A stretch of DNA of 64,000 nt, taken from Thermoanaerobaculia bacterium (lineage in GTDB: Bacteria; Acidobacteriota; Thermoanaerobaculia; UBA5066). The stretch is taken from assembly GCA_963719225.1 (NCBI GenBank), contig CAVRAY010000001.1, forward strand, positions 1,344,001 to 1,408,000. Direction: 5' to 3'. The translations under genes and the position numbers were made by a program. The notes beneath the pieces were generated by a model. That model was not told where the DNA came from. It saw only the letters and a program-made list of their open reading frames with translations, and made no database searches. Below are positions 32,501 through 64,000 of this stretch, piece by piece. Numbering within the stretch: the first letter of the stretch is position 1; each line of letters opens with the position of its first letter.

Positions 32501-32725
32501 CTCCTCGGCGGCCTGCCGCTCGCTCTCGGTGCAGGCACGGGCTCGGAGCTGCGCCGCCCGCTCGGCATCGCGATCGTGGGCGGCCTGATCTTCAGCCAGA
32601 TGCTGACGCTCTACACGACGCCCGTCGTCTATCTCTACCTCGACCGCATGCGCCTGCGCTGGGAGAAGACCCGGCGTCGCCGCGTCGCCGCTCGGGACCT
32701 CTCTCATGAGCAACCGGCGACCTGA
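29510..32725 (+). CDS. mdtC: RND efflux permease (MdtC/MuxC)
   Basis: [48 protein letters not shown]; GTGA overlap with mdtB; extended N-terminus. Confidence 0.9.
29519..29576. repeat. GC-rich palindromic REP-like element at the 5' end of mdtC
   Basis: TCCGGGGGG (29519-27) / CCCCCCGGA (29563-71); alternative inner stems GGACG/CGTCC and CCGGGT/ACCCGG; ends CCCCCCGGACCCCC. Confidence 0.55.
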
Positions 32726-34805: not shown

Positions 34806-36407
34806 GTGGGGAAGAGTCTTCGAAGCGCGGCGAGGGCGTTCAGCCTGGGCCTCCTGATCGCGCTTCGCCTCGGCGCCGAGGAGACGGAGAGCCCCTCTCT
34901 CCGCGTCGGCAAGATCACGATCCGGACCGTACCCGTGTTCTCTCGCGAAGAGGCGACGTCCGGCCTCTATCGCACGATGAACCGGGCGCACGTCACGACG
35001 CGCCCGTCCGTGATCCGGAAGTTCCTGCTCTTCAAGGAAGGGGAACCTTACGACTCCGGAAAGCTGAAGGAGACCGAGAAGAACCTCAGAGAGCTCGGCT
35101 TTCTCAAGTCCGCATCCGTGACCTCCGGCCCGCCGCACGGAGGCCTCGTCGACGTCCTCGTGGTCACACAGGATTCCTGGTCGCTTCTTCCCGGCATCCC
35201 GATCGCGAGCGCCGGAGGGCAGACGACGTACGGCTTCCAGCTCCTCGAGAGGAACCTCCTGGGGACCGGGCGCGAGCTTTCGCTGAGCTACAACAAGGAG
35301 ATCGAGCGCATCACGCGCATCGTAGAGTACGTCGACCCGTACCTCTTCGGCTCTTACTGGAGCGGGCGCTTCTCGCAGGCCTGGAACTCCGACGGCGAGA
35401 GGACGCGCGCGGAGGTGAGCCACCCGTTCTCCTCCCTGTCGAGTCCCGTGTCTCACGACTTCCGCCTGGATGTCTTCGGCCAGACGACGCGCACGTATGC
35501 GGCGGGCGAAGTCGACGCCGCGTACCACCAGGATCACCGCGGCGGGGGCCTGGAAGCGGGCTGGGCGGTCTCCACGTCGCGGACGCGCGCCCATCGTCTC
35601 ACCGCCGGAATGGAAGTCCTCGAGGACCGGTTCGAAGCGCTCCCCGAGAGGCCGGGAGATCTCCTTCCCGATCCGCGAACGTTCCGCACCGTCTTCGTCG
35701 GCTACGAGCTCGCCGAGAGCGACCTGATGAAGCTGAGCTACGTGAACCGCGACCTCCGGGTGGAGGACTTCAACCTGGGGTGGGCGCTCGACGCGCGGTT
35801 CGGCGTCGCCCCCGAATTCCTGGGCTCGGCGGGAAACACCGTCTTCGTGCGGCTCAAGGCCGGAAAAGGCGCTCGGCTCGGGGGACAAGGGTTCGTCCTG
35901 GCCTCTGTGTCCTACGAGACGCGGCTGAGAGGCGGCCCGGGAAACCAGATCGTCTCGGCCTCCCTCGACGTCGTCGAAAAGCTCCGCACGCGTCATCTCC
36001 AGACGCTCGTCGCGAAGCTCCGCTACGACCAGGGCTGGAACCTCGACCGGGACGTCCAGTTCATCGCGGACGGGCTCGTGGGACTTCGCGGCTACCGGCT
36101 CTTCTCGTTCGTCGGCGACAAACGGATGATCCTGAATCTCGAGCACCGTCTCTTCCGCGGCAAGGAAATGCTGCATCTCTTCTCACCGGGCGTCGTGTTT
36201 TTCGTGGACACCGGCGCCGCGGTGCCCGAGGGCACGCCCCTTCGACCGTCGGAGTTCAAGACCGACCTCGGAATGGGCCTCAGGATGTCGATCAGCCGCG
36301 CCCCCACGAGCAACGTCTACAGGATCGACTTCGCGTACGCGCTGAACCGGGACCCGAAAGGACGCCGGGGCCTGATCGTTTCTTTTTCGGCGTCGCAGGG
36401 TTTCTAG
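34806..36407 (+). CDS. Omp85/BamA-TamA superfamily outer-membrane protein (single POTRA plus barrel)
   Basis: Signal peptide; POTRA TRPSVIRKFLLFKEGEPYD...ETEKNLRELGF; ERNLLGTG; GLRGY motif; DLGMGLR; terminal F. Confidence 0.82.
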   Translation: MGKSLRSAARAFSLGLLIALRLGAEETESPSLRVGKITIRTVPVFSREEATSGLYRTMNRAHVTTRPSVIRKFLLFKEGEPYDSGKLKETEKNLRELGFLKSASVTSGPPHGGLVDVLVVTQDSWSLLPGIPIASAGGQTTYGFQLLERNLLGTGRELSLSYNKEIERITRIVEYVDPYLFGSYWSGRFSQAWNSDGERTRAEVSHPFSSLSSPVSHDFRLDVFGQTTRTYAAGEVDAAYHQDHRGGGLEAGWAVSTSRTRAHRLTAGMEVLEDRFEALPERPGDLLPDPRTFRTVFVGYELAESDLMKLSYVNRDLRVEDFNLGWALDARFGVAPEFLGSAGNTVFVRLKAGKGARLGGQGFVLASVSYETRLRGGPGNQIVSASLDVVEKLRTRHLQTLVAKLRYDQGWNLDRDVQFIADGLVGLRGYRLFSFVGDKRMILNLEHRLFRGKEMLHLFSPGVVFFVDTGAAVPEGTPLRPSEFKTDLGMGLRMSISRAPTSNVYRIDFAYALNRDPKGRRGLIVSFSASQGF

Positions 36408-36412
36408 CGTTT

Positions 36413-36429
36413 CTGGCACGAGGCTTGTA
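36413..36429 (+). promoter_or_regulatory. Candidate sigma54 (-24/-12) promoter
   Basis: CTGGCACG-AGGC-TTGTA vs consensus TGGCACG-N4-TTGCW (one mismatch at -12 C); GGAGGT SD follows. Confidence 0.55.
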
Positions 36430-36457
36430 ACAAAAGGGCGAGAGGGAGGTGAAAAAA

Positions 36458-37711
36458 ATGCGATTGAAAAATCGTGTCTTTTTCCTCGTGCTCGTTCTCG
36501 CGCTCGCCGCCGGGCTCTTCGTGCCCGCGCAAGCGGCGCGCGCGAGCGTGAGCGTCACGTTCTTCTACGACTCGCTCTCCCCATACGGAGACTGGATCAC
36601 GGTCTCGACTTACGGCCGCTGCTGGCGCCCCGCGCACGTCGCCGTGGGCTGGCAGCCTTACCTCGACGGAGAGTGGATCTACACGGACGCCGGATGGACC
36701 TGGGTGTCGTTCGATCCGTGGGGCGGCGACCCCTACCACTACGGAACCTGGGTCTTCACCGCCCGGTACGGCTGGATCTGGATTCCCGGGACCATCTGGG
36801 CGCCCGCGTGGGTGACGTGGTGCATCACGGACGACGCCTTCGGATGGGCTCCCGTGCCGCCGAGCTTCGCCGTCGGGATCTCGGGTTACGTCGGGCCGGC
36901 GCTGACGGTCTCACGGAGGGCGTACGTCTTCGTGCCGGCACGCCAATTCGCGGGCGTCAACGTGAGCTCGGTGCGCGTGCCCATCACCCAGAATGCGACT
37001 CTCGTCTCGCGTTCGCGTCCGCTGACGCGGTTCGCCGTCCAGGGCGGCGTACTTTCCGCCGGCGGCCCGGCGCTGCCCCAGGTGGAACGTGTCACTGGAA
37101 GGCGGATCGAGCGCGTGAACATCGCCCAGGCGAAAACCGAGCCGGTCCCGATCCGGACTTCCCTTCAGGGAAGGCGAGGTCGGGCTCCGGTCGTTGTCCC
37201 GGCAGTCGAACGGGCGAAGGCGATCACGGCCCACGAGAGGCGCGGCCCGCAGCAGGTATCGCGGTCGAAGACGGACGCCGTGACGACGGAGCGGGCGGTT
37301 CGCACTCTACCGCCACCCGCAAAGCGCGAGAAACATGAGAGAGCCACGGTCAACCAGTCGCCACCCCCGCCTCCCATGCGCGAGAAGCACGAGAAGCACG
37401 AGAAGGCCACCGTTCATCAGCCGCCACCTCCGCCGCCCCCCGCGGCCTCGAACGAGAAGCGCGAGCGCGTGATTCGCTCGCAGCCGGCTCAACCTCATTC
37501 CCCGCCGCCGCCGGTGCACGAGCGCCACGAAAGGGCAGTCACGCAGGCGCAGGTGAAACCCGAAAGGAACATCGGAAAGCGGCCGCAGGGGCCTCCTCCT
37601 GCTCAAGTCGAAAAACAACCCAACGTCCAGCCCAAGCCGCAAGGAGCTCCGCCCGCGCACGCGAACCCGCCGGGGAAGGAGAAGGAAAAGGAGCACGGCA
37701 AGGACCGCTGA
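36458..37711 (+). CDS. Secreted DUF6600-type Trp-rich protein with long Pro/charged disordered tail
   Basis: Signal peptide; LSPYGDW...W.PY..G.W....GWTWVS..PWG..PYHYG.W.....GW.W.PG..WAPAWV; tail with KxEKHE/QPPPPP repeats. Confidence 0.8.
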   Translation: MRLKNRVFFLVLVLALAAGLFVPAQAARASVSVTFFYDSLSPYGDWITVSTYGRCWRPAHVAVGWQPYLDGEWIYTDAGWTWVSFDPWGGDPYHYGTWVFTARYGWIWIPGTIWAPAWVTWCITDDAFGWAPVPPSFAVGISGYVGPALTVSRRAYVFVPARQFAGVNVSSVRVPITQNATLVSRSRPLTRFAVQGGVLSAGGPALPQVERVTGRRIERVNIAQAKTEPVPIRTSLQGRRGRAPVVVPAVERAKAITAHERRGPQQVSRSKTDAVTTERAVRTLPPPAKREKHERATVNQSPPPPPMREKHEKHEKATVHQPPPPPPPAASNEKRERVIRSQPAQPHSPPPPVHERHERAVTQAQVKPERNIGKRPQGPPPAQVEKQPNVQPKPQGAPPAHANPPGKEKEKEHGKDR

Positions 37712-37720
37712 TCCCGGCGT

Positions 37721-37749
37721 TTGATCCCCTTCCGTGGGCGTGATATGAA
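37721..37749 (+). promoter_or_regulatory. Promoter of the giant-protein operon
   Basis: TTGATC-17 nt-TATGAA with extended TG; overlapped by inverted repeat TGAACCCG..CGGGTTCA (37746-37770). Confidence 0.45.
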
Positions 37750-37899
37750 CCCGGGCTAGTCTCGGGTTCAAAGTCTGTTCTTCGTGTGGGACGAGGTCAA
37801 TCGATGGGTTCGCCCTCCGGCAGGGCTCCCGTGATTCGCCCCGCTTCGGCGGGTCGTGATGCCGTGCGCCTGCGCTGCCAAAGGGCAAGAACTCCCGAG

Positions 37900-40800
37900 T
37901 TGAGAACTGTTCGCACAATCGCCGTCCTTGCCTCCTTGTGCGTTCTCGCGTCATTCGACGCCGTCGCCCAGCCGGGCGGTCCTTTCGGCACGGCCCAACT
38001 CCAGATCTCGGGCGCCCGGCTCACGATCTACACCGACTCGCTGACGAACGACGCCGACCAGACGCTGAACGTCGGCGAGCCGGGTCGCGTGAGAACGTGT
38101 TATGGCGCGGGAGCCGCTTGCGGTTCCACGACCGCCGGCGCGGTTCCCGGGCTCAAGGTCGTCGGCGAGCTGAGCGGTCCCGAGCTTCCGCAGGCCGTGA
38201 CTTACGAGATTGCGCCGGGCGGAACCTTCTTCCTGCCGGGCTTTCAGCGCGAGGGTGATTACCTTCTCGAGAACATCCGCCTCGTCGAGATGGCGACGGA
38301 TCGCGTCCTGGCGAACGCGGAGCCGTCGCTCGCGACGCTTCACGTCCGCCAGATCCTGCTCGCGTCGGCCACCGTCACGCGGCTCACGCTCGCGGAGCTT
38401 CAGGCGCGTGGCATCGCGCTGACTCAGCAGAATTTCCAGGCCTTCAGCTTCTCGGTCGGTTTTCTCTTCGCCGGCCAGCTCGTGAACATCGAGCTGCCCG
38501 TTCTCTTCCAGACCGACGGGAAGATCCTGCCGCTCGACAAGCAGAAGGTGAAGCTGGACGACCTTCCCGACAGCGTGAGGCACGAAGTGCGCCGCTGGGA
38601 GCCTCCGCAGATCGTCCCGTTCTCGCTGAACCTGCCCCCGAAGGACGCCAAAGATCCCCCGGACGTGGAGCCCGAGGTCCTCAGCGTGCCTCTGTATGGC
38701 GCCATCGTCATTCCCGGCAACGTCTCCTTCCTGAATCAGTTCTTCGACGCGCGCCTCATCGTGGCGAACGGCGCGCCGAACGGGTCGAACGCGACCCTTC
38801 AGAACGTGACGGGTGCGCTGAGGCTGCCCACGGACGGCTCCTTGCGGATCGCCGCGACGACGCCGCCCGTGTCGGTCGGACAGAAGCTTCCGCTCACGAA
38901 GGCGAACGGCAGCGGCGTCGTCGGTCCCGGCGAGCAGGGGACGGCGGGCTGGACCGTGGAGGGGCTCGTCGCCGGGACGCAGACGCTCCGGATGGAGATC
39001 GCCGCGGACCTCGTGAGGCCGGGGCACCTGACCCTGCCGCTCGTGGGCTCCGTGCAGGCCGCCGTGGAAGTGGTCGACGCGCGCTTCAACCTCACGTTCA
39101 ACCACCCGGACGTCGTGCGCGAGGGGGAGGCATACAGCCTTTACGTCACGGTCACGAATCTCTCCCGCGCGGCGCAGAACCTCGTGACCGTCGAGCTCCT
39201 CTCCCAGAACATCACGGGCGCGCACCAGGCCGATCCGACCGATCCGTTCCGGCAGACGATCGCGACGCTCGATCCGGGCGCCTCCGAGACGCTGGAGTTC
39301 CGCCTCGTTTCCGATACGACGGGCAAGTGTGTCGCGACGACGTTCCAGTCGAGCTCGCCGGGCCTTTCGGGCACCATTCACCTGCGCACGGGCGTGGGCG
39401 AGCTGGGCATTCCGCTCTCTCCGGCCTCGCTCGTTCTCCCTCGCTTTTCCGAGCTCCTTCCGCGCGCGCTCCTCACGGCGGACGTGCGCCTGCTCGGGCT
39501 CGCCTACAGCCTCGCGGTTGCGCCCGCGGGGGCCGCGCCTCCAGGGCTGCCGCACGTCGTCAAGAGCGACGTCGTGCGCCGTGCGGTGGATCTGGGCGAA
39601 GCGGGCCAGCGGCTCTACCTCCAGGAGCGCCTCCTCGAATCGCTCGAGGTGCTGGCCCTCGACCAGATGGGGAATCGCGACGATCTCGCCGACTACGACA
39701 CGCTACGGCGCTCGCTCGCAAAAGGAGCCGCCGCCGCGACTGCGCTGTCCGACCTTTTCCGGCAGGAGCAGCAGAACCGGAATCTGGCCGCGGCGGACTT
39801 CGTCGACCACTTCGCCTCCACGACGGACTACGGGCGGCCGTATCTCGCGGCGGGGCTCGTGCCGAACGGCACGCAGCCTTTGCCCGTCCTCGAGGTGCGC
39901 CAGGTCGGGGCCTCCGGCACGAGCTTTCTCGCGCGCACGAGCGACGACGCCACGCGACTGCGGACGGTTCCGTACGGGGAGGTCTATGCGCTCGCCGACG
40001 TCCCGGGCGGTACGACGAGAGCTCCGTTCGCGCTCGTGGGGCGGCTCGATTCCGCGACGTCCTACCGGGTCGACCTCCATGCGCCCGCGACGGGCGCCTC
40101 GGGCCGGTTGATCCTCGTCGTTCCGACGGACGATCTCGCGGGCTTCCGCAAGGTGGACTTCGGCTTCGTCACGATGGGCGCGAACGAGGTCTGGGAGGTG
40201 CGCGCGGTCGGGGCGGCGGGGGACACGCCGCTCTCGTTCGGTCTCTACTTTCCGACGAGCGGAATACCCGTGCCGGGCGTTTCGGCGCCGGCGATCACGG
40301 TACTCCAGCTTCCGCCGTTCCGCGTCATCGGCGCCGTCGAGGACTTCACGCTCGACCGGTATGGCCTCGGCCTGTCGTATCTCTTCAACCGTCCGCCGGA
40401 CAAGGCCGCGGCCGAAACGGCGTCGAGCTACACGATCCGTTCGACGTTCCACGGACAGGACACCTCCTCGCCGCCACTCACGTTCGACAAGGTCGTGACG
40501 AAATCCGGCGGCGCCGCGTTCTGGCAGCCCAACAGCGAGCGCGTCGTGGACGTGCGCTATCAAAGTCCGATCAGCGCGTTGAACGGGCTCGTGGACGGGA
40601 TTCCCGTCATCCGGCACGAGCACCTGCTCGCCACGAATGCGATCCGCGACACGCACGGCACGCCTCTCGAGCCCCAGGTGCCGGCCGCGCTCATCGAACC
40701 GAACCACACGGGCGGACTCGTGGACGGCAGGGTCCTGCTCGGCACGGGAGAGCCGGCGGCCGGGGCGATCGTTCAGCTCATCCGCTATCACAGCGTCGGG

Positions 40801-43800
40801 ACCGAGCCCGGCGGGAGCCCGCTCATCGTGCCGGATCTCGTCGCCGAGACCACGACCTCGAGCGACGGAGCCTTCTATTTCGACTTCATCGAGGAGCCGC
40901 CGCAGAACGCGGTCCTCAGCGGCTTCCATATCAGGGCCACCGTGCCGCCCGGGAGCGACCCGACCCAGCAGCCGGGCGGCTCCGAAGAGGTCTCCTCCAC
41001 CATTCGGCTGCAGAACCGGCTCGTCCACGTGAACATCGCCCTCCTCGGGCGCGGCACGGTCAAGGGGACGCTCGTCTATGCCGACAACGGCGCGCCGGTT
41101 CCGAACGGCCACGTTGCGGCGGCGAGCACCCTCTTCAGCGAAGTGAAGGACGTGGTGGTCGCTTCGGACGGCTCGTTCACGATCAGCGCCCTTCCCGTCG
41201 GACCGATCACGCTGACCGGAAGCGACGCCTCGGGCAATCGCGTCTACCAGACGGTCGCGCTCCAGCAGCCGGGACAGACGGTGAACGTCGCCCTGCGGAT
41301 CCCGCGGACGACTCCCCCGAAGACCGGGACGGTGATCGGGCGCGTGCTCAGGCAGCGAAGCGGGACTCCGCTCCCTCTCCCGGACCCGTCGCCCGGAGCG
41401 CAGGTGGCGGTGTACTCGAACGGCGCCTTCATCGGGCAGGCCGTCTCGGACGCTTCGGGCAGCTTCCGTTTCGAAAAAGTTCCGGAAGGGCAGGTCCAGG
41501 TGCAGGCCGCCGACTTTTCGATCTCGCGGACGCGCGCGATCGGCGGCGCGGTCCTTCCCGCGGACGGCACCGTCTCGATCACCCTCACCCTTTCCGATGC
41601 GGCTCCTCGCGTCGTGACAGGCCGTGTTCTCTTCCACGAGTCGGCGACCAACACGGACGTGCCTGTCCAGGGAGCGGTCGCCTTCATCGTCGGTCCCGGC
41701 GTCTTTGCCTACACGGACGCGAGCGGCACGTACCGCATCGAGGCCGTTCCGGTGCAGGGAGCTTTCGACCCGCCCTACGGGGTGACGGCCATCGACTTCA
41801 CGCGCCAGCTTCAGGGGATCGCGAATCTGCCTCCGATCCTCGACGTGGGAGACGGGTCGCCGATCCGCGCCCCCGACATCGTCCTGAGAGCCATGACGGG
41901 AGGGGTCGACGGCGTCGTGCTCGATCCTCTCGGGCATCCGATCGGGGGAATCAGCGTTCAGATCCCGTTCGGGCCCTCCACGACGACCCGGTCCGACGGG
42001 CATTTTTCCTTCGATGACGTCGGCGTCGGGGGTGTTTCGCTCGTGGCGCACGCGGGCAACGGGCTTTCCCCGGGCAAAGTCGGGTTCTTCGGGACGGGCT
42101 TCGCCGCCATCGTCTTCGGCGGGCACCGCCCGTTCGCGACGATCCGGCTCCAGGGCTCGGGCGTCGTGAACATCCACACGCGGACGGCGACGTCGACCGG
42201 TGTGCTCAGCCCGATCCACTACAAGCCGACCATCTACCGTGACGACACGTACTCCATCGAGGGGAAGCCGGACCCGCCCATCGAGACGACCACGGACCAG
42301 GACGGCCGGCTGCAGCTCATCGTGCCGCTCGGCTCGACGGCCGTCACCGCGTTCTCGGGATTCGGGAGCAAGTCGGTCACCGCCACCCTCAGGTATCCGG
42401 GTGAGGTCGTCAATCTCGAGATCGTCTTCGACTCGTTGTCCACGGTCACCGGCCACGTCGTCGGCGTGGACGGCGTGACGCCCGTTCCGGACGTAGATGT
42501 TTTCCTCACGGCGACGGGCCTCCTGCCGCAAAGGCAGCGCGCCGACGGGCAGGGAGGCTTTCGATACGAGCTCGTACCCTCGGGCTCCGTGTCGGTCACG
42601 ACGGAGGCGCTCGTGGGCTCGGTCGATCGGGTGGGCCGTGCCGACGGCCGCCTCACCTCCGGGCAGACGATCGACCTGACGGTCGTCCTGCGCGCGCAAG
42701 GCACCGTCAAAGGGCGCGTTTTCCAGCTGGTCGGAAGCACCCTCGTGCCCATTCCGTTCGCGCGGTACACCATCAGCGAGAGCGCGTATCCGAATCGGCG
42801 CCTTCCCGGAGGTGTCGCCACGTACGCGACGGACGCGAACGGCGCATACGAGGTGTCACACCTTTTCGCGGGGCCGATCACCGTCGTGGCGGCCGATCCG
42901 GGCCAGGTGACGCGTCAGGGCCGCGCGACGGCGGAGATCACATCGGATTTCCAGGTTCTTCAGATGCCGGACATCGTCCTCGCGACGTCCGTCGGCTCCC
43001 TGAGCGTTCTCGTGCGCGATCCCGAAACCGGGAGTCCCGTGCCCGACTGCCAGATCACCCTCTCGAACGGCGACGTGACCGTGTCCGACGCGCAGGGCCA
43101 GGCCTCGTTCGACGCCCTGCCGCTCGGAACGTACTCCGTCTACGCCTTCCACGCTCCCACGGGGCAGGGAGGCGTCGTGAACGGCCTGCGGCTCCTGAAC
43201 CCCGGCGACCACGTGGACGGCACGATCATCCTCGACACCCGCGGCCAGATCTCGGGCACGCTCTGGGACGACCCGCCGAAGAGCCGGGGCGTCGGGAACG
43301 GTACCGTTCAGCTGACGGGCCGCGTGAACGGACGGCTCTGGGGCACGTCGTTGACGGCGCTCGCGTCCACGTCGTCCGATGCCGCCACACTCGGACGATT
43401 CCTCTTCGACGGCATCCCCGTGGGCAGCTTCACCCTCGTCGCCGCCGTGTCCGATTCCGCCCGCCGCGCCTCCACGTCCCTGGACCTGACGACGACCGCG
43501 CCGGTGGCCGCCGTGGACCTCGTCCTCGAGCAGCTCGAGGACCGCTACGTGCGCATCTTCCAGAATCTCACGGCGGCGCCGCATCTCTTCGAGATCGACC
43601 CGTCCGGCGGCGTTTTCAACGTCGAGCTCACGCAGCCGCCGGGAACCTGCAATCCGAACTGCACGTACGACTTCCTCCTGAGCGTTCCGACGTCGCCCTA
43701 TCCGAATCACCTCTTCAAGTTCCCGGCCGTCTACGCATCCCGCCCGCTTCTCGTCGACGTGCGCGAGGCGAGCGGCGAGCAGCGCAGGGGATCCATTTCG

Positions 43801-52800: not shown

Positions 52801-55800
52801 ATCGCGATGAGCGGGCGCGTCCTCGCGGCGTCGATCGCCGGCTCGAGTCTCACGATCAAGTCCGGCGCGACGTTGACGCATCCCGCCACCGGGAACACCA
52901 GCGGCGGGCCCAAGAACCTGACGGTAAACGTGAGCGGTGCCCTGACCCTCGAGTCGAACGCCACCATCGATGTCTCGGGCCGCGGCTACTCGGCGGTCGT
53001 CTCCTACCCGAATACCCCGATCCCGGGCGCGGGAAGCGGCGGCAGCCACCTCGGATCCGGAGGGCTGGCGGGGTCGCCCCTTGGCGCCACCTACGGCAGC
53101 ATCGAACACCCGTCGGAGAACGGCAGCGGCGGACGGGACGACGCCGGAAACGCCGGCTACGGTGCCGGCGGAGGCGCCATCCGGATACAGGCGGGCTCCG
53201 TCGTTTTCACGGACGCCACCTCGACCGTTCGCGCGAACGGCAACAGCCTCTGCGGGTCGCCGGCGGGCGGCGCAGCGGGCGCGGGCGGGTCGGTGTGGCT
53301 CACCGCCACCGGCGCGATTTCCGGAGACGGGAAGATCGAGGCGAAGGGCGGGGACTGTGCCATCGCGCGGGGTGGTGGCGGCGGAGCGGTCTCCCTTGAA
53401 TACGCCACGACGTCGGGCACCGTCCTCGCGAACGCTTCGGCCGCCGGGGGCGCGGGCTTCGCGACGGCCGCGACGAACTCTGGCGGAGCAGGCTCGGTCT
53501 TCTTCCGTGGTCCGACCTCCGTCTACGGCGACCTCCTCCTGAACAACGCGGTCCGCACGGGAGAGACAACGGTCCTTCCGACGCTCGGAAGCGGTGTCGC
53601 CCAGCCAGGGAGCGCCGGAGCGGCCCTGATCGTGCTCACCTTTTCGCCGGTCCCCGCGTACGCGGTCGGACGGTGGATCGACGTCTCGACTTCGGCCGGA
53701 GCGCTCAAGGGAACGTGGCGGATCGGCTCCATCACGAACCAGGCGCCGTCGGGTTCCTTCACGAAGCAGACCTTGAACCTCCTCCAGAACCAGTCGGAGA
53801 CGATCGCCGTCGCTCCACTCGACAAGTGGCAGGCCGTTTATCTCCTGGACTCGTTGTCGATCAAGAACGGGGCGAGCCTCGTGAGCGCGGATCCGGTCCG
53901 CACGGCCTCCGTCACACTCGACGGCACCGCCGTTCCCGTCGTCGGAGATGTCGTGGCGGCGTCGGGCAGCGCGGAGGTCAAGGGAGCCGTCACGGCGCGC
54001 CGCATCGACGCGGCGTCGCTCGCGATCCGTGCGGGCGCCACGTTGTCACATCCGGCGATCGGCACGGACCCCACGAAGCCGGAGCGCCTCACGCTCAACG
54101 TCGCCGGCACGCTCACGATCGAGAGCGGCGCGACCATCGACGTCACGGGGAAGGGCTACGTCCTCGCGACGACGTATCCGGGGGCGACCGTCTCGGGGAC
54201 CGGCGCCGGTGGCAGTCACTTCGGCGTCGGCGGAACGGGAACGGGCGCCGGCGGATCCACGTTCGGGAATCCGGAATGGCCGGCGGAAGCGGGCGGCGGT
54301 GCCGGCGGCGGCTTCGGAAGCTCCGGAGGCGGCAGCGTGCGGATCGTCGCCGGGACTCTCGCGTTCGGAGACGCCACGAGCGCGATCCGGGCCAACGGCG
54401 GCATCACGAGCTACCGGACGGGCGCGGGCGGCTCGGTCTGGATCACCGCGGGCGCGCTCTCCGGCGACGGGGTCATCGAGGCGCGGGGCGGCGACACGAC
54501 GGGCGTCGGCGACGGGCGCGGCGGCGGCGGCGCGATCGCCATCGAATATGCTTCGGCGTCCGGGACCGCCCTCTCGAACCTTTCCGCGCGCGGCGGAAAC
54601 GGCTCCAGCAACGGCGGCCCGGGTACGATCCTCGTCAAGGGTCCCGGCTCGTTGTTCGGCGATCTGACGATCGACCGGAAGGGCGTGATCGGGGCGGGGA
54701 CGATCCTTCCCTCTCTCGGGTTCGGCTTTGCACAGGGTGGAACCAACGGCACCACGCTGGTCACGGACCACCTCACCGAGCAGCCGAAGTATTTCGTCGG
54801 ACGCTGGGTGGAGATCCGCGATGCGAGCGGCACGACCCTGAAGGGCACCTGGAGGATCACGGCGGCGTCGTTCGGCGGACCCTTCGAGCAGCAATTCTTC
54901 ACGCTCGCGCCGAACGAAGCCGAGGTGATCGACATCCTGGTCGGCGACCGGTGGCAAGCCGTTTATCGCTTCGACAACCCCCCGACGCTCCTCGGCGGAG
55001 CGACGCTCGCGAGCGTCGATCCGATCCGCATCGGCGGCACGCTGCTGAGGGCCGGGCCCTCCGCCGCGTCGATCCCGGCCGCCCAGACGATCCGCTCGGT
55101 CTCGCTCTGCACGGACATCGGCGAGGCGCTCAAGCCCGGCGGATCCTTCGCCATTTGCGCCGATTCGATCGCGCGCGATCTCACGCTCGAGATCTCGGGC
55201 GCGTTCGAGGCGCGGATCGCCGCATACGGTAACTGCCGCGATCCGATCGCGATTCCGGGCTCGGCGAAGCCGGGGCCGCTGACGATCGTCGCGAGCGCGC
55301 GGGACGCCGAGGGCCGGACGGCTTCGGCCACGGCACACGCGCTCGTCGTCGCGGACGAACGCGCGCCCGTCCTCGTGTCCGTCGAGCCGGCGCCTTCGGC
55401 GGCGCTCCGGTCGGGCGATCCGCTGCGCGTCGCGGTCGAGGCGTGGGACGACGTCGGGATCGCGTCTGTCGCCATCACCCTCGGCGGGAAGCGGGCGATC
55501 CTCACGGCGCCGCCGTACGAGATCTTCGCGCTCGCGCCGCCGGTCGCGTCGAAGGAGTCGCTGCAAGTCGTCGTCGAGGTCTTCGATCCGTCGGGCAATG
55601 TCTCGCGCCGCGAGATCGACCTCGGCGTCCTGCCGTCCGGCGCACCGCTGCCCGCGTTGGCGGCGGCGCCTGGGACGCCGGCGGAGGGCATCTCGCTCGC
55701 GGACGGCAGGCTCGCGGTGGACGGCGGCTGGCCATGGCGCGACGCCGACGGCGAGACGCGAGGCCGCACGCTCGAGCTGCCCGCGATCGGCACGCACACG

Positions 55801-56229: not shown

Positions 56230-57086
56230 AGAAGCTCGTCGTCGCGTCTCTCTGCCTCCTGGCGCTCTTTGCTGTCGCCGCACCTGCTTCAGATGCGCCG
56301 GGCGTCCTCTTTCCCGTGTCGTTCTCGGTCGAGCATGCGCTCGTACAAACCGGCCTCGACGGGTCCGAGTTCCGGACGGACGCGGTCACGGATACGTACG
56401 GCGGCTCGCACCTCGTGTCGGTCCGGCCGGGCGGAAGCCGCGTGATCGTGGACTTCGCGAGGCGCGAGCTCACCGAGGTGAGCGTGGAGAAGTCCACGTA
56501 CTGGACGCTCTCCTTCTCCCAGATGGGCGACCTGTCGCGGCGTCTCGCCGCCGCCGAGGAAAGGCCGACGATCGCGAAGGACAGGAGGGCGTCCGTATCG
56601 CCGGCCCCGCCCGTCGTCAAGGTCGAGGAGATCGACGCGGCTCGCGAGAGGCAGGCTCTCGCGACGGGGCTTCCCGCCTCGCGCGCGGGGGTCCGCCACT
56701 TCCGCGCTTCCGTCGAAGGGGGTCCCATCGCAGACGTGTGGGTCGACGGCACGCTTCGCCTCACGCCGGCCGCCCTGGACGCGCTCGAGAGCTTCGAGCG
56801 CGACGTCCTCGGATCCGCGTCGAGGGGCGAGGTCAACGTCTCCTCTCTTGCCGCGGCGGCGCGCCGCGCCGCGGGCGGCGCCGTGCCCGTACGCGTCCGG
56901 CGCTCGCTCGGAGCGGACCGCGGCACCTCAGACGACACCGCGCTTTCGCTGACGCCGCTGCCGGCCTTTCCGCAGAAGCTCCTCGTCGTGGGCGACGGCT
57001 TCCGCCGCGTCGCGAGCCCGCTCGAGGTCATGGTCGCGTTCGCCGAGGAAGAGGCCTCGCACGACTCGTCGAGGCTCGTGAAGTGA
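56226..57086 (+). CDS. Secreted hypothetical protein (beta-rich, DUF4412/LolA-like suspected)
   Basis: ATGA overlap with the giant gene; MKKLVVASLCLLALFAVA signal; RVIVDF..RELTEV...KSTYW. Confidence 0.7.
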   Translation: MKKLVVASLCLLALFAVAAPASDAPGVLFPVSFSVEHALVQTGLDGSEFRTDAVTDTYGGSHLVSVRPGGSRVIVDFARRELTEVSVEKSTYWTLSFSQMGDLSRRLAAAEERPTIAKDRRASVSPAPPVVKVEEIDAARERQALATGLPASRAGVRHFRASVEGGPIADVWVDGTLRLTPAALDALESFERDVLGSASRGEVNVSSLAAAARRAAGGAVPVRVRRSLGADRGTSDDTALSLTPLPAFPQKLLVVGDGFRRVASPLEVMVAFAEEEASHDSSRLVK

Positions 57087-60000
57087 AGAATCGCACGCTC
57101 TCGCTCGCGCTCGGCGTCGCCCTCCTCGGGGCCGGTGCCGCTCGCGGGGAGTCGCCGTTTTCGATCGGCGCCCCTCTCGCGGCGCGCGCGATCTTCGGGT
57201 GCTCGGAAGTGACCGTCGCGGACGGCGCGACCGTGCGTTCGGAAGGCGTCTCGTCGTACTCCGCGAAGGAAGGGCGAGGGCACGTGGCCTCGAACGGCGA
57301 CATCGCCGTCTCCTCGCGGGCCGTCGTCATGGGCGACGTCGCGGCCGGGCCAGGACATACCGTCACCGTGGCGGCCGACGCGGCCGTTTCTGGCCTGACG
57401 ACGCCGGCGGCCGCCGCCGTGGACTGCCGTCCCGTCGACCTCGTGAAGCTCGCGGCGGCAATCGGCCCGAACGACAACGCGAAGATCCCGAAGACCGCGC
57501 TGGGAAAGAGCGCCCTGTCTGGCCCAGCGGGGGACGCGCTCGTCCTCGCCGGGCGCGACTCGGTCACGCTCCCCGCGGGGACGTACGTGTTCTCGTCGAT
57601 CGACCTTTCGAGCCGGGCGCACGTGATGGTGGCGGGAGAGGCTCGCGTCTTCGTTATGGGCGACGTCCACCTCGCGGGCAACAGCGCGTTGAATGCCGCG
57701 GGCGGAGCTTTCCGGCTGCGGCTCTTCACGTCGGGTCCGCGCCTGACGGTCGAATCGTCCTCGACGCTCGGCGCGTTCGTGTACGCGCCGTCCGCCGCGG
57801 TGTTCGTGGACACGGAGAGCCGCGTGCTCGGGACTCTTTTCGCGAGCGCGGTGACTGTTCGCCACGCCTCCGCGGTGATCCGGGTCGTGGACGACACGCC
57901 GCCCGTGCTCACGCTTCTCGAGCCCGGAACGTCCGGCGCGCCCGTGCTCTCCGCGGTGCGCGTGCGCGGCCTCGTGCGCGATCCCGAGACCGCCGTGACG
58001 AGCGCCAAGGTGAACGGGCAGGTCTTGGCGCTGGCGGACGACGGGTCCTTCGACACGACGGTCGACGCGACCTCGTCCGCCGAGGTGCGTCTCGACGGCG
58101 AGAACGCCATGGGCCTCGTGTCGACGGTACGCGTGTCGCTGTGCAGCGGACCTCCTCAACTCGTGATCCAGTCGCCCGCGAACGGCTCCCTCGTGGGCGA
58201 TCGGATCGGATCCGTCACCGGAACCTGCGGCACGGCCTCGTCGGTCGCCGTGAACGGCCGGCCTGCCGCCGTCGCGAACGGTGCGTTCCGGCTCGACGGC
58301 ATCGACTTCGGGCCCGACGGCCTCGTCGTGCTCAACGTCGTCGCCTCCAGCGTTTGCGCCCAGACGGCCCTCGCGACGGCGTTCACGCTCGACACGCAGC
58401 CGCCGGCCGTCGCCATCGACACGCCGACCTCGGGTTCCGTCGTGGGCGCCTCGCCCCTCGCCGTGAGCGGCACGTTCGTGGAGCCGAACCTCGCCTCGAT
58501 CACGGTGAACGGCGTCGCTGCGGCGATCTCGGGCAGCCGCTTCACGGCCACCGTGCCGGTTCCCGCCGGCATCTCGACGCTCATCGCCGAAGCGCGGGAC
58601 AAGATCGGACACGTCGGCCTCTCGACTCCCGTGAGCGTCACGCTCGACACGCAGGCGGCCTCCGTCGTCATCACGAGCCCCGCTTCCGGCACGCTCACGG
58701 GCGACGCGACGGCGACCGTCTCGGGCACCGCGGACATGCCCGGGCTCGCGAGCGTTCGCGTCGCGGGGCGCACGGCGACTCTTTCGGGAAAGAGCTTCAC
58801 CGTTTCGGGCGTCCCTCTCGTGGAAGGCGACAACCGGCTCGTAGCGGAGGCGATCGACGCGAGCAGCCGGTCGTTCCTCTCGCAGCCGGTCGTCGTGACG
58901 CTGGATTCGCTGCCGCCGGACGTGGCGCTCGATACGACTTCCTTCCCGCTCCTCACGAAGAGCACGGCGATCACCGTCTCGGGGACGGTCTCGGATCCCC
59001 ACCTCGGTCCCGTCACGGTCAACGGCGTGGCGGCGCTCGTCTCCGGCGGGCGTTTCACGGCGACGAACGTGCCGCTCGTCGAAGGCGACAATCCGGTCCG
59101 CGCGCATGCCGTCGACACGCTCGGGCACTCGGCCGACTCGGCGGCGGCCACCGTGAACCGCGACACGCAGGGCCCGGCGGTGACGATCACCTCGCCCGCC
59201 TCGGGTGCCCAGCTCGCGAACGCGAGCCTCGTCGTCACCGGCACCGCGTCCGATCCCCACCTCGCCGGCGTGACGGTGAACGGCGTTTCTGCGCCCGTGA
59301 CGAACGGGACGTTCACCACAAGCCTGACGCTCGGCGAGGGAGATTCGACCCTCGTCGCGAGCGCGGTGGACTCGCTCGGGAATTCGGGCGCCTCGCCGGG
59401 CGTGCCCGTCACGGTCGACACGATCGCGCCCGTCGTCTCGATCGACGCGCCGGCCAACACTCTCACGGGCTCGGCGTTCGTGACCGTCACGGGCACGGTC
59501 CTCGAACCGCACCTCCTGTCCGTCACGGTGGCCGGCGTCCCGGCGGCCGCCTCGGGCGGGCGCTTCGTGGCCACGAACGTGCCGCTCGTCGAAGGCACGC
59601 AGCAGATCACCGCGGTCGCGCTCGACACGTTCGGCCACCGCAGCGAGTCCGGGCCGGTCACGTACCGACTGGACTCGACGCCGCCGGTTTTGACGATCGA
59701 CAAGCCGCCACCCGACTCCGCCTGCTTCGCCTCGGGCGCGCCGATCGCGGTCTCGGGGCACGTCGGCGTCCCCGGGTCCGCGAGCGCGCGGCCCGCCGTC
59801 TCCCTCGTCGTGAAGCCTTCCGGCGGCGCGCCACAGACGTTCGCGGCGGTCCTGGATGCGGCCGGCACGACCTGGAGCGTGGCGGCGGTGGATCCCGGCT
59901 CGTCCGACGGCTTCGCCGTCCTGACCGCCTCAACAGGCGACGCGCTGGGACACGACGTCAGGGTCGTCCGCAGCGTGCGCGTGAAAGCCTCGACTCCAGC

Positions 60001-63000
60001 GGTCTCGCTGCTCCTCGACGGCAGCGCCTTCCCGGGCAGCGCCGCGGGCGCGACGGCGGCGCCGGGCGAGACGCCCGTGCTCCTCGGCCGCGTCGTGAAG
60101 CCGCGCGCGCTCGTGACGGACGGCCCCGGCGCGGCGCCTCCGGTGCCGGTCCTCACGCTCGACGGCGCGCCTTACACGGGAGCCGTCATCGACGCCGAGG
60201 GCACGCATCTTCTCGCCGCAACCGTGAGCGACTGCGCGGGGCACTCCGCCTCCCGGCACGCGCTCTTCACGATCGACGTGACGCCACCGCGGCTTCTCTC
60301 GACGGTGCCGGCCGACGGTGTGACTCTCGGCGCGGCTGTCACCTCCTTCAGCGGAACGTCCGATCCGGACCTCGCCTCGGCTGCGGTCGACGGCGTGGCC
60401 GCGGGAGTGAGCGGCGGAGCGTTCTCGCTCGTTCCTTTCTCTTCGAAGGAAGGCACGAACGCCCTCGCGATCGTCCTCGTCGATCGGGCGGGGAACCGCT
60501 CGGTCTTCTCGCGCTCCTTCAATGTGAAGTCCCTGGCCCCCTCCGTCGAGATCCTCGAAGGGGGAGTGCCCCTCGGCACCGGCGCGACGTTTTTCCGCAC
60601 GGTGACGCCGGTCGTCCGCGCGAACGATCCCTCCGCGACGGTCGCCGCCACGCTCAACGGCTCGCCGTTCGTCTCCGGCACTCCGGTGAGCGCGGCCGGA
60701 ACCTACACGGTCAGCGCCACGGCCACCGACGCGCTCGGCCACGCGGGAAACGCGACCGCCAGCTTCAAGATCGACCTTTCCGCGCCGCCCACGATCGACA
60801 TTACGGCGCCGCCCGACCGCGCCGTCCTCCCGGGCCCCGCGATCGCGGTGACCGGCACGGCCAGCGCGTCCGTCACGAGCGTCACCGTGAACGGCCGGGC
60901 CGCGACGCTCGCGGGGGCCGCCTGGACGGTGCCGGACCTGGTCCTCCCACCCGACGTCCCGGTCGAGATCATCGCGATCGGCGCGGATGCCCTCGGCCGC
61001 ACCGCGACCGCGATACGTCAGGTCACGGTGCGATCCGTCGGGCCGCAGGTTCAGATTCTCGATCCGCCCAACGGCTTCCGGACGAACCGCAAGAAGATCG
61101 ACGTCGTGGGCGCCGTCGTCGGCGGGCCTTCCATGACCGCGAACGGCACGGTCGTCGTCGCGGGAGCGACGCTTCCGCTCGACGCGCTCGGCACCTTCCG
61201 CGCGAAGGACGTCGCCCTCATCGACGGCGCCAACACGCTCGTCGCGTCCGCCGTCGACTCGCAGGGCCGCACGGGGAACGCGCAGGTCGTCGTCACGACG
61301 GACACGCTCGCGCCGCTCATCGCGATCATGGCCGAGGGCCAGCCTCTCGTCGACGGCGCGAGCTTCGCGCGCGCGTTCACGGTGCACGTCGAGATCACCG
61401 ACAACACGCTGCCTCTCCCGATTCCGGTCATCCGTCTCAACGGGCTGGACCGCGGCGCCACCGCGGCCGCCACGGACCTTCCGATCGCGCAGAACGGCGG
61501 CTACATCCTCTCCGTCGTCGCGCGCGACGCGGCGGGCAACGAGAGCCGCGCGGAGCGCAGCTTCGTCCTGGCGTCGGGCGGCTGCTCGGTGAGCGCCCTC
61601 GATCCTTCGGACGGGGCGGTCGTGGCGGCCTCCGCGATCACGCTGCACGGGAAGAGCGGCGACGCGCAGACCGTGAAGGTGACCGTGGGCGGCCAGACCT
61701 TCACCGCGCAGCTCGCCGACGGCACGTTCGCCGCGGGCGGCGTCCCGCTTCCCATCGTGGGCGACAACACTCTGCAGATCGCGTGCACGGACCGCTCGGG
61801 GGCGACCACGACGACGAACCTGAAGCTCACGCGGCTCGCGGACGGCCCCGGTCCCGTCGTGCGCATCACGGCCCCGGCGAACGGCGCGCGGCAGACCGTT
61901 CCGACCGCGCCCGTCGCCGGGACGGTTTCCGATCCGTCCGCGACCGTCCTGGTGAACGGCGTGAAGGCGCTCGTGGCGCCGGCCGGCACGTTCTCGCTGG
62001 CGTCGCTGCCGCTCGTAGAGGGCCCGAACGTGTTCGCGGCGCGCGCCCTCGACGCCGCCGGACGCTCGGGGGAAGACCGCGTCGTCATTTATCGCGACTC
62101 GGCCCCGCCGAAGGTCACGATCACATCGCCTCCGGACGGCGCGCACGTGGGCCTGCCGGGCGCGGGCCCGGCCGCGGTCACGGTGACGGGCGCCGTGGAC
62201 CTCACGAACGAGCCGAACCTCTCTTCCGTCGTCGTCTCCAGCGCGGCGGGCTCCGTGACGGCGACCGTGGATCCGGATTCCGGCGCGTTCTTCGCCGCCG
62301 GTGTGCCGCTCGTGACGTCGACGCCCGGCTCGCCGCAGACGCTCACGGCGACCGCCACGGACACGCTTTCACAGGTCGGCTCGGCGAGCGTGTCCGTCAT
62401 CTTCGATCCTGCCGCCCCCGCGCTCGTTCTCTCGCTCCCGATCGACCTGACGCGCTTCACCGAGACGTCGCCGCCCTCCTTCCCGGTCGCCGGCGAGGCG
62501 TGGGCGAAGGACGGCGCGCAGATCTCGCTGAACGGCGGCGCCCTCGATCCCGCGACCCTGAGCTGGGAACCGGCCGCAGCCGACGGCCGGCGGCATGTGT
62601 CGTTCGCGGCGCAGGTGACGGTGCCCGCGCAGGAGGGGCCGTTCGGGCTCATCGCGCGCGTGGAAGAGCCGGCGGGCGCGTACGCGAACGATCGGCGCCT
62701 CCTCTACAAGGACGTGACCGCGCCGACGGTGATCGAGCTTTCGCCCGCCGACGGGGCGAAACAGGTGGACGCGAACGAGATTCCGCTCGCGCTCTTCAGC
62801 GAGCCGGTGAAGCCGTCCTCGCTCGGAACCGTGGACGGACTCACGCTCACGCGCGTCGCGACAGGCGACAAGTCCGTCGGCACGTTCACGGTCGCCGGCA
62901 ACGCCGTCGCGTTCGTTCCGGGCGCGGCGCTCGCGCGAGGCGAGGTCTATCTCTTCCGGGCCGGCCCGGGCGTGACGGATCTCGCCGGGCATCCGCTCGC

Positions 63001-64000
63001 GGCCGCGAAGGAAGCACGCTTCACGGTCGCGACTCTCTCCACGGGCGTGCCTCCCGTGCTCGATCCGGTCCCCCCCGTGATCTGCGCGACCCAGATCGCG
63101 ATCACGGGCACGGCGGCGCCGAACGCGGCCGTGCGCCTCAAGGACGGCGACCTCACGTTCTCGGGCAACGCGGACGCCTCGGGCCGTTTCTCGATCACGA
63201 TTCCCCTCTCCGGCAACGGCTTCCACGCCGTTCATGCCTCGACGCTCGACCGCGACGGCGCGGGAGCCTCTCCCGAGGCGACGGTGCTCTTTCGCGTGGA
63301 CTGCAGCTCTCCCTCCGTCCTCGGCGCCTCGTTCGACCGGTCCTCGGGGAAGATCACGGTTGCCTTCAGCGAGGCGATGGGCGCCGCGTCGCTCACGGTC
63401 GGCGGGACCGGGAGCGCGATCACGGTCTCCAAGGCCGACGATCCGACGCACGCGCCGCAGGCCGCGACTGTCGCTCTCTCTGCGGACGGCGCGACGGCCA
63501 CGCTGGATCTCGGCACGGCGCCCGGGGCGTGGTGGCAGAACGTCTCCGTGCGCCTTCTCGTGGGGCCGCCCGCGGCGGACGCGTCGGGGAACGCCCTCGG
63601 CTCTTCCTTCGAGACCGTCTTCTTCGCGGGCGGCGGCGGAGATCTCTCCGGAGGCTTCCTCTCGGGTGAGGCGTACGACGACGAAAGCGGCCGCCCGCTC
63701 GCGGGCGCGGAAGTAAAGCTCTTCGCGTCCGGCGCCGCCCTGCCGGGCTCGGTACCGGCGGTGCAGGTGGGCACGCCCGTCGCCTCCAGCGTGACGGACG
63801 GCCGCGGGCGGTTCAGCCTCGTGGGCGACGTCGCGGCCGGGCGCTACGCGCTCGTGCTTTCGCGGAGCGGGTATTCGCGCGCCGTTCGCCGTCTCGCGCT
63901 CGAGCCGGCCGTGGGCGCCGTGCCGTTCGACAGCCGGCTCACGCCGCTCGGCGCGCAGGGGGCCGCGCTCCTCCACGCCGCGACGGGCGGAACGTACGAC
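57083..64000 (+). CDS. Second giant secreted Ig-repeat protein (>2306 aa, runs off window; absent from ORF track)
   Basis: GTG 57083 overlaps the upstream TGA. Reads MKNRTLSLALGVALLGAGAARGESPF..., a beta-helix-like region, about 20 or more DT.PP.V.I.SP/VTVNG/L.EG.N Ig repeats and Big_5 (FSEPV). No ORF listed in this frame, consistent with no stop before 64000. Confidence 0.88.
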   Translation, partial: MKNRTLSLALGVALLGAGAARGESPFSIGAPLAARAIFGCSEVTVADGATVRSEGVSSYSAKEGRGHVASNGDIAVSSRAVVMGDVAAGPGHTVTVAADAAVSGLTTPAAAAVDCRPVDLVKLAAAIGPNDNAKIPKTALGKSALSGPAGDALVLAGRDSVTLPAGTYVFSSIDLSSRAHVMVAGEARVFVMGDVHLAGNSALNAAGGAFRLRLFTSGPRLTVESSSTLGAFVYAPSAAVFVDTESRVLGTLFASAVTVRHASAVIRVVDDTPPVLTLLEPGTSGAPVLSAVRVRGLVRDPETAVTSAKVNGQVLALADDGSFDTTVDATSSAEVRLDGENAMGLVSTVRVSLCSGPPQLVIQSPANGSLVGDRIGSVTGTCGTASSVAVNGRPAAVANGAFRLDGIDFGPDGLVVLNVVASSVCAQTALATAFTLDTQPPAVAIDTPTSGSVVGASPLAVSGTFVEPNLASITVNGVAAAISGSRFTATVPVPAGISTLIAEARDKIGHVGLSTPVSVTLDTQAASVVITSPASGTLTGDATATVSGTADMPGLASVRVAGRTATLSGKSFTVSGVPLVEGDNRLVAEAIDASSRSFLSQPVVVTLDSLPPDVALDTTSFPLLTKSTAITVSGTVSDPHLGPVTVNGVAALVSGGRFTATNVPLVEGDNPVRAHAVDTLGHSADSAAATVNRDTQGPAVTITSPASGAQLANASLVVTGTASDPHLAGVTVNGVSAPVTNGTFTTSLTLGEGDSTLVASAVDSLGNSGASPGVPVTVDTIAPVVSIDAPANTLTGSAFVTVTGTVLEPHLLSVTVAGVPAAASGGRFVATNVPLVEGTQQITAVALDTFGHRSESGPVTYRLDSTPPVLTIDKPPPDSACFASGAPIAVSGHVGVPGSASARPAVSLVVKPSGGAPQTFAAVLDAAGTTWSVAAVDPGSSDGFAVLTASTGDALGHDVRVVRSVRVKASTPAVSLLLDGSAFPGSAAGATAAPGETPVLLGRVVKPRALVTDGPGAAPPVPVLTLDGAPYTGAVIDAEGTHLLAATVSDCAGHSASRHALFTIDVTPPRLLSTVPADGVTLGAAVTSFSGTSDPDLASAAVDGVAAGVSGGAFSLVPFSSKEGTNALAIVLVDRAGNRSVFSRSFNVKSLAPSVEILEGGVPLGTGATFFRTVTPVVRANDPSATVAATLNGSPFVSGTPVSAAGTYTVSATATDALGHAGNATASFKIDLSAPPTIDITAPPDRAVLPGPAIAVTGTASASVTSVTVNGRAATLAGAAWTVPDLVLPPDVPVEIIAIGADALGRTATAIRQVTVRSVGPQVQILDPPNGFRTNRKKIDVVGAVVGGPSMTANGTVVVAGATLPLDALGTFRAKDVALIDGANTLVASAVDSQGRTGNAQVVVTTDTLAPLIAIMAEGQPLVDGASFARAFTVHVEITDNTLPLPIPVIRLNGLDRGATAAATDLPIAQNGGYILSVVARDAAGNESRAERSFVLASGGCSVSALDPSDGAVVAASAITLHGKSGDAQTVKVTVGGQTFTAQLADGTFAAGGVPLPIVGDNTLQIACTDRSGATTTTNLKLTRLADGPGPVVRITAPANGARQTVPTAPVAGTVSDPSATVLVNGVKALVAPAGTFSLASLPLVEGPNVFAARALDAAGRSGEDRVVIYRDSAPPKVTITSPPDGAHVGLPGAGPAAVTVTGAVDLTNEPNLSSVVVSSAAGSVTATVDPDSGAFFAAGVPLVTSTPGSPQTLTATATDTLSQVGSASVSVIFDPAAPALVLSLPIDLTRFTETSPPSFPVAGEAWAKDGAQISLNGGALDPATLSWEPAAADGRRHVSFAAQVTVPAQEGPFGLIARVEEPAGAYANDRRLLYKDVTAPTVIELSPADGAKQVDANEIPLALFSEPVKPSSLGTVDGLTLTRVATGDKSVGTFTVAGNAVAFVPGAALARGEVYLFRAGPGVTDLAGHPLAAAKEARFTVATLSTGVPPVLDPVPPVICATQIAITGTAAPNAAVRLKDGDLTFSGNADASGRFSITIPLSGNGFHAVHASTLDRDGAGASPEATVLFRVDCSSPSVLGASFDRSSGKITVAFSEAMGAASLTVGGTGSAITVSKADDPTHAPQAATVALSADGATATLDLGTAPGAWWQNVSVRLLVGPPAADASGNALGSSFETVFFAGGGGDLSGGFLSGEAYDDESGRPLAGAEVKLFASGAALPGSVPAVQVGTPVASSVTDGRGRFSLVGDVAAGRYALVLSRSGYSRAVRRLALEPAVGAVPFDSRLTPLGAQGAALLHAATGGTYD

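Follow-up and report, generated by a model that had tools for sequence, protein, structure and literature searches.

How two probably secreted proteins of more than 6,000 residues each pass the outer membrane when no translocator gene is linked to their own is the question posed by an operon in the Acidobacteriota genome G000 (Thermoanaerobaculia bacterium, assembly GCA_963719225.1). The stretch analysed (the window) comprises 64,000 nucleotides of contig CAVRAY010000001.1 (G000:C1:1344001–1408000), and positions numbered above 64000 ('extended') carry the count of the window on along the contig. It contains three chained, rightwards-transcribed genes: giant 1 (37804–56229), coding for a protein of ~6,140 aa; the gene of a small secreted protein of 286 aa (56226–57086); and giant 2, of which the first 2,306 of 6,417 codons lie inside the window (57083–64000), and which starts with a GTG codon and ends at extended 76336. 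Together they probably specify a two-part, Sec-exported antibacterial weapon, composed of a tip-exchangeable RHS giant (giant 2) and a conserved giant neighbour (giant 1), that needs neither a type VI secretion system (T6SS) nor the adjacent Omp85 protein.

Organization of the operon

The genes overlap by ATGA at 56226–56229 and by GTGA at 57083–57086. The G+C content at third codon positions (GC3) is 0.84–0.88 for all three, and this, with long open homologous frames in many genomes, argues that the chained open reading frames (ORFs) are not due to chance; a preliminary description of the window, made from its sequence alone, was thus correct in reporting the chain. The giant 1 ORF spans 37786–56229 and codes for 6,147 aa from the first GTG, with the database call giving 6,141 aa from the ATG at 37804. 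That description also placed signal peptides on all three proteins, and each does have, near its N-terminus, a run of hydrophobic residues and then small ones, with mean Kyte-Doolittle values over 12 aa of 2.25–2.96 by a simple hydropathy heuristic rather than SignalP; the n-region of the signal-like start of giant 1 is unusually long.

Giant 2 and its toxin-type tip

Giant 2 has every feature of a polymorphic RHS toxin that can be read from sequence. The 6,417-aa protein, whose gene runs 12 kb beyond the window, has an N-terminal part with a signal-like start, a DUF7305-like domain, a long immunoglobulin-like (Ig) array, and Big_5 and transthyretin-like domains, such that a scaffold of ~4,400 aa precedes DUF6531 (aa ~4390–4465), the YD repeats and the RHS core. 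The repeats score 117 bits with PF05593 and 102 bits with TIGR01643, DUF6531 is also over its cut-off, and the RHS-associated core matches TIGR03696 at 48.7 bits (cut-off 32.5), ending in a PxxxxDPxG motif at aa 6112–6120. All 11 of the Protein Data Bank (PDB) sequence matches of the RHS part are Rhs-type proteins (Rhs effectors), and none is a teneurin.

Beyond the core lies a 297-aa tip (extended 75443–76333), followed with an ATGA overlap by a 157-aa ORF (extended 76333–76806) that is likely an immunity gene. The GC content is 0.62 in the tip and 0.56 in the downstream ORF, versus 0.63–0.74 in the giant 2 body before them. The last ~150 aa of the tip recur at 65–68% on three other RHS-type database proteins, and the last part matches the tip of the relative G019 (32% over 146 aa); the tip and its relatives have in common an E / R-x-D / D-x-T pattern, which we take to be reminiscent of restriction-endonuclease-like nucleases. 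None of 53 candidates is homologous to the 157-aa ORF.

Among relatives the tips vary. Fourteen foreign tips were scanned, of which four match named toxin families (an XOO_2897 deaminase, a YwqJ deaminase, an AHH nuclease, and Ntox47 with PT-HINT), two match DUF2380 or Stv, two match DUF6765 under the cut-off, and six match none. A SUKH-4 gene directly follows the XOO_2897-deaminase tip, and matches of the 15 ORFs downstream of tips include SUKH-4, ankyrin (two), TPR and DUF7919. Orphan tip/immunity cassettes are present in G000, G021, G222 and G299; those in G000 are at extended 88316–93527, where one carries a colicin/pyocin DNase and the second is 96% identical, over 552 nt, to the core of giant 2 and is followed by an SMI1/KNR4-like ORF. 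Since tips vary among relatives and orphan cassettes trail the gene, we conclude that this is a polymorphic RHS toxin system, and it belongs to the Sec-dependent class tabulated by Zhang et al. The 'toxin-carrier' option of the preliminary description has therefore stood, given this identity of giant 2 and the wide co-occurrence of the two giants, and the downstream search that it proposed for RHS/DUF6531 and toxin-immunity genes yielded DUF6531, the RHS core and the likely immunity ORF.

Giant 1 and the pairing of the giants

Giant 1 is the conserved partner of the RHS giant in these loci. We compared 34 foreign giant 1 loci, picked for long contigs (G329, for which the wrong side was fetched, and remnant loci were left out). 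In 25 of them giant 1 is followed by an RHS giant, and in four by a giant-2-type scaffold with no RHS part in reach; three have neither, and two are too short. The succession of giant 1 and giant 2 persists across Acidobacteriota classes at 25–35% identity. In G161 (C8; L043–L047) two pairs of giant 1 and giant RHS genes stand in tandem over more than 75 kb behind one small gene; the second RHS gene there runs off the contig, and further copies are on other G161 contigs. In G207 and G299 (C25) separate genes encode the scaffold and the RHS half of giant 2, the latter half with an apparent signal-like start of its own, which fits non-covalent assembly outside the cytoplasm; giant 2 is split in G248 too. 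The loci of G028 and G256 are broken up by frameshifts, which may be assembly errors.

The N-terminal 800 aa of giant 1 have a match in 111 of 301 Thermoanaerobaculia genomes (including G000 and the unpublished G205 and G202), and the first 400 aa of this region in 37/63 family genomes and 39/301 phylum genomes; homologues in the database also carry the labels Vicinamibacterales, Desulfuromonadales and Acanthopleuribacter, with a distant match in the cultured Acanthopleuribacter pedis. Within this region is a conserved N-module (aa 62–700; 37969–39885) with 16 invariant columns across 48 sequences. It has no Pfam or NCBIfam match, and a profile search against PDB sequences gave nothing significant. 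Its predicted structure (predicted local distance difference test, pLDDT, 83.5; predicted template modelling score, pTM, 0.67) has three beta-sandwich domains and a helical bundle; the structure matches are generic Ig-like ones, the best having Z 11.7 over 102 aligned residues, with the helical part barely tested.

The remainder of giant 1 consists of a transthyretin-like (carboxypeptidase-regulatory) array, Big_5/Big_7 Ig domains, six Gly-rich modules (46894–54650; 25–32% Gly) and a variable C-terminus. The Gly-rich modules begin near aa 3037, 3797, 4164, 4541, 5061 and 5451 and differ in number between relatives; one module scanned alone matched no Pfam family. The C-terminal halves in relatives carry variable LVIVD, Calx-beta, F5/8-type and other modules. 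Autotransporter, RTX, type IX secretion system C-terminal domain (T9SS-CTD), PEP-CTERM and two-partner secretion (TPS) families were absent from Pfam and NCBIfam scans of giant 1, and a string search of the proteins did not find LPxTG, NPNG or PAAR, in agreement with the earlier view that giant 1 has no known export or anchor domain.

The small protein with a predicted LolA-like fold

The small protein has no Pfam match itself, and a remote member of its family matches DUF4412; the Atlas likewise places it in a DUF4412 cluster (0.92, low recognition). Its predicted structure (pLDDT 91, 78 sequences in the alignment) is an open beta half-barrel with a helical lid, as in LolA, RseB (MucB) and DUF4412 proteins. 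The best fold match is 2yzy (Z 9.8, root-mean-square deviation 3.4, 141 aligned), followed by LolA 6f3z (Z 8.8) and MucB (Z 7.5), with all top ranks LolA-like; the identity to these proteins is only 6–9%. A protein segment would be a likelier cargo here than lipid, since no lipobox is evident in the giants.

The distribution of the gene is patchy. A single-protein search found it in 14 of 61 relatives (one weak, partial), and a profile search in 45 of 301 class genomes. In the close clade, 11 foreign loci have it between the two giants, and 28 of the 32 weak profile matches are directly upstream of a giant 1 start (one in the unpublished G205), with the exceptions being in G186, G253, G236 and G180. 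Going undetected at many loci, it is either accessory or too diverged. The model suggests that it is likely an accessory periplasmic carrier; the proposed role as a periplasmic chaperone is in keeping with the fold, but the gene is missing from many loci.

Delivery of the giants and alternative explanations

The genes immediately upstream, an Omp85-family gene (34806–36407) and a DUF6600 gene (36449–37711), both transcribed rightwards, were reported correctly in the preliminary description; one POTRA domain is over the cut-off and the Omp85 domain is under it. It further suggested that the Omp85 protein may be the translocator. Such a dedicated role for Omp85 (or for DUF6600), in the manner of contact-dependent inhibition (CDI) or two-partner secretion, draws on a position directly upstream on the same strand in G000, G007 and G019. 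Neither gene has a match in any of the 34 foreign giant loci, some of which have only ~3 kb upstream, and the genes upstream of giant 1 vary from locus to locus. Relatives of Omp85 occur in 61 of 61 genomes searched (including the unpublished G037), and the closest orthologues are in G011, G007, G017 and G019, in none of which the small gene was matched. In G017 (94% complete) sequence equivalent to 93.7 kb resumes ~2.4 kb after the Omp85 and DUF6600 genes, and this genome thus lacks the whole 56-kb island. Among five near-complete carriers of the giants the Omp85 query was not found in G233 (97% complete) or G354 (100%) and gave a weak POTRA match only in G161, and the giants have no TPS domain. 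We therefore reject both genes as components of the system and consider them flanking backbone genes; a translocator role is largely refuted and highly improbable. We give next to no credence to giant 2 being a PAAR-less T6SS cargo, despite the T6SS Rhs proteins among its PDB matches and a T6SS gene cluster in G000 (G000:C1:3140000–3167500), where one tssC-like copy is spread over several frames and a second is intact; the protein has a signal-like N-terminus, no PAAR family or string was found in it, and TssC was not found in three of the five carriers (G128, G222 and G161, all 99% complete).

Giant 2 could instead be a self-sufficient Sec-exported RHS toxin in the style of WapA or the teneurin-like proteins, with giant 1 an independent adhesin or filament that is merely co-transcribed. 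Its own signal-like N-terminus and Ig stalk, the three loci where giant 1 has no RHS neighbour, and the bacterial teneurin-like YD toxins, described as having Sec signals and no obvious delivery machinery (PMC13018210), are all consistent with this. The gene order kept across classes, the tandem pairs with both giants in each, and the strong conservation of the giant 1 N-module argue against it, and we regard it as unlikely. A target other than bacteria, either a eukaryote or a prey surface with giant 1 as a Tc-type carrier, is suggested by the extreme size, the variable carbohydrate-binding-type modules, and an RHS cocoon like that of TcB-TcC; this is very improbable given the cognate immunity-type genes and nucleic-acid-targeting tips, which point to competition among bacterial kin, and no SpvB or Tc family was matched in the Pfam scans.

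Several other routes were considered and rejected. Two-partner secretion or CDI (type Vb secretion, T5bSS) lacks both a TPS domain and a conserved linked TpsB/Omp85 gene, and a T9SS substrate is discounted by the absence of a C-terminal CTD family and by PorV not being found in G000 (97% complete). A Tc-type (TcdB/TcaC) RHS protein has no counterpart at the sequence level, as there is no SpvB or integrin-like propeller Pfam match in G000 or seven foreign giant 2 middles, and an umbrella toxin none, as no ALF-repeat or trypsin-like Pfam match was found. Two secretins are present in each of the five near-complete carriers, and G000 has a T2SS-like (type II secretion system) cluster around a secretin and a PilMNOQ-like cluster, as read by eye from ORFs. 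With TssC not found in three of the five carriers, secretins in all five, and no PorV found in G000, Sec followed by T2SS is the default guess, and passage of the giants across the outer membrane by a T2SS-like secretin system is quite possible, a shade short of an even call.

The two-part weapon might then operate as follows. All three proteins would pass the inner membrane via Sec, and in the periplasm the LolA-fold protein would shield a hydrophobic stretch of one of the giants. The giants would traverse the outer membrane through a machine whose genes lie elsewhere, the T2SS-like secretin system being the likeliest. Giant 1, with its variable adhesion modules, may serve as a long stalk or as the subunit that binds the target, and giant 2 would dock onto it; the RHS core would cleave at DPxG, freeing the tip, probably a nuclease here, into a neighbouring bacterium. 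The 157-aa protein would guard the producer against its own tip, and the downstream cassettes would supply replacement tips.

A number of observations weigh against this account. Giant 1 can stand alone, as shown by the three loci with neither an RHS nor a scaffold gene, where no RHS giant lies within 30+ kb: G040 (L058–L060), G066 (L100–L101) and G532 (L128–L129). The small gene was not detected at many giant loci outside those listed above, no family was matched by the G000 tip or the 157-aa ORF in our scans, and giant 2 was not found to contain a hydrophobic segment for translocation. The secretins are non-discriminating, as they occur in every genome tested and all of these are giant carriers, and the T2SS substrates known to us are all far smaller than 6,000 aa. 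Kin among the compared loci are not independent, and the loci were selected for long contigs.

A deletion hotspot in giant 1

Four genomes, G019 and G007 (same genus) and G313 and G171 (of another family), retain giant 1 from its 5' end and break it after the same codon, equivalent to 38445/38446 in the window, where G000 is intact. The collapsed operons are at L083:11983–15798 (G019), L085:10227–13271 (G007), L103:4979–5524 (G313) and L104:1830–2141 (G171). The first three join giant 2 at ~aa 5380, 4990 and 4540, respectively, and the G171 break joins just before an Imm26-like ORF (weak match). A separate metagenome scan found the site intact in 35 of 38 loci and broken in three (L138, L139 and L142), a 39th locus having been dropped for a match of 20 aa only; the break may lie one base earlier in L139 and as much as ~five codons later in L142. 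In total, seven loci break giant 1 at or beside this codon, with in-frame joins in G019, G007, L138 and L139; those of G313, G171 and L142 shift the frame or land past the RHS gene. Two other collapses, in G001 and G143, break elsewhere, and the remnants in G033, G122, G217 and G181 were left out of the count, their joins not being resolved. Under a uniform model, six of nine breaks in one codon of 270 has P ~6e-11; this value is post hoc, five of the seven loci are closely related, and the scan query is less apt to catch earlier breaks.

Because the right ends differ, each deletion needs its own event at the site. Slippage between direct repeats is not supported, as exact matches from the site to the RHS region are no longer than background in 19 loci, and neither is DNA-level constraint, as synonymous conservation at the site is mid-range among 29 close sequences. 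Selection at a domain boundary fares no better: the site falls within a strand of predicted domain 2, and not all joins keep the frame. Microhomologies of 2–7 nt look possible by eye at some junctions. Sequencing runs, in which relatives appeared as DNA contigs of small share and not as RNA, showed no joint at the site, which says little either way. That the left end is fixed and the right ends vary points to a recombinase or nuclease that acts on one primary site and on secondary ones, which we put forward tentatively and with somewhat more doubt than belief. The usual outcome is that tip and/or immunity genes are kept behind the operon start.

Cassettes and other features of the region

The cassette zone of G000 (extended 84101–93527) includes a primase-like gene and a gene for an XerC-like recombinase among two RHS-core cassettes; the gene pair is found twice in G019, and there is a primase match in G233. 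Behind RHS genes at L118:4101–9794 (extended 84101–89794), L084 (two copies) and L032, the primase-like and XerC-like genes are accompanied by a signal-peptide-like RHS-core cassette, and this recurring arrangement is a candidate tip-delivery element. A term search of the available text of a 2025 preprint on plant-pathogen Rhs found no mention of recombinase, primase, SymE or integrase. A repeat of ~85 nt that can form a hairpin (−27 kcal/mol, with no shuffle control) is present at L002:1810–1896 and 6527–6601 and also in L083, L084 and L085; G000 has only two copies, both in the island, and in G019 and G007 it lies behind cassette genes. It is possibly an att-like site or a terminator.

Behind the likely immunity gene, a stretch of the island (L002:1923–5841; extended 76922–80840) contains a Ser/Thr kinase gene and ORFs that by eye resemble Vsr, restriction and methylase genes. 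RAYT/IS200-type transposase-like ORFs, also recognized by eye, are directly 3' of RHS ends in L064 (G248), L074 (G256) and L104 (G171). Two more RHS cores are on contig 2 of G000 (G000:C2:549991–555615), with no giant 1 N-module nearby. Elsewhere in the window, an outer-membrane efflux (OEP) gene (32706–34196) has an in-frame stop at 33849–33851 after which the OEP-like frame goes on; either it is a pseudogene or the stop is a sequencing error.

Relationship to known systems

WapA of Bacillus and Streptococcus is a Sec-exported YD-repeat toxin with a variable tip and immunity, made by a monoderm host as a single chain with wall-binding repeats, and is not known to have a partner giant. The system described here is similar in its probably Sec-exported YD-repeat toxin, variable tip and likely immunity gene, and differs in its giant partner. 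The teneurin superfold consists of the FN-plug, NHL and YD shell. Bacterial teneurin-like proteins, in the part of their description available (PMC13018210), share with giant 2 a Sec-type signal, a toxin in a YD shell, a polymorphic C-terminus, immunity genes, and the lack of an obvious linked delivery machine; that part describes no giant partner, and the lipoprotein or S-layer anchors of those proteins are not seen here. As noted above, the PDB matches of the RHS part are Rhs effectors and not teneurins.

The class to which the system belongs is the 'T2SS/Sec-dependent' polymorphic RHS toxins of Zhang et al. (2012), for which the accessible text (PMC3482391) tabulates no signature neighbour gene. 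As far as that text goes, the shared features are a signal peptide as the sole export signature, RHS repeats, an optional HINT domain, variable tips, immunity-type neighbours and orphan cassettes; the conserved giant partner, the LolA-fold accessory and the ~4,400-aa scaffold before DUF6531 set the present proteins apart as a distinct family. There is also an analogy to the Streptomyces umbrella toxins UmbA/B/C, which in the available account (PMC11062931) are likewise secreted polymorphic toxins of several subunits, one large and bearing the toxin, one a small adaptor and one that engages the target. The analogy is functional only: ALF repeats and a trypsin-like domain characterize those toxins, and an RHS shell and a diderm host the system here. 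We found no description of the giant pair in the literature, of which most subscription papers were out of reach and supplements (PMC3482391 Additional File 1) could list such architectures. The earlier label 'undescribed' thus applies to the two-giant architecture, within the literature searched, but not to the RHS toxin class, which was already known. The co-occurrence of the neighbouring genes, proposed there as a check, gives a similarly divided picture: the giants pair widely, but Omp85 is unlinked and the small gene is missing from many loci.

Significance

Acidobacteriota are abundant in soil, and in the literature searched no such system is reported from this phylum. The family is present in about a third of the Thermoanaerobaculia genomes sampled and in other classes, at a cost of ~39 kb per locus, and it holds a pool of unclassified toxin and immunity domains. 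The hotspot marks a recurrent loss of most of the operon, starting at the same codon. A bolder proposal, which we offer as speculative and rather doubtful, is that these loci define a new Acidobacteriota toxin-delivery class, in which two chains of 5,000–8,000 aa form a long-reach, T6SS-independent apparatus with a LolA-fold chaperone and a site-specific disarmament switch at one codon. Such a switch, if true, would drop up to ~38 kb of the weapon and keep the immunity genes behind the operon promoter.

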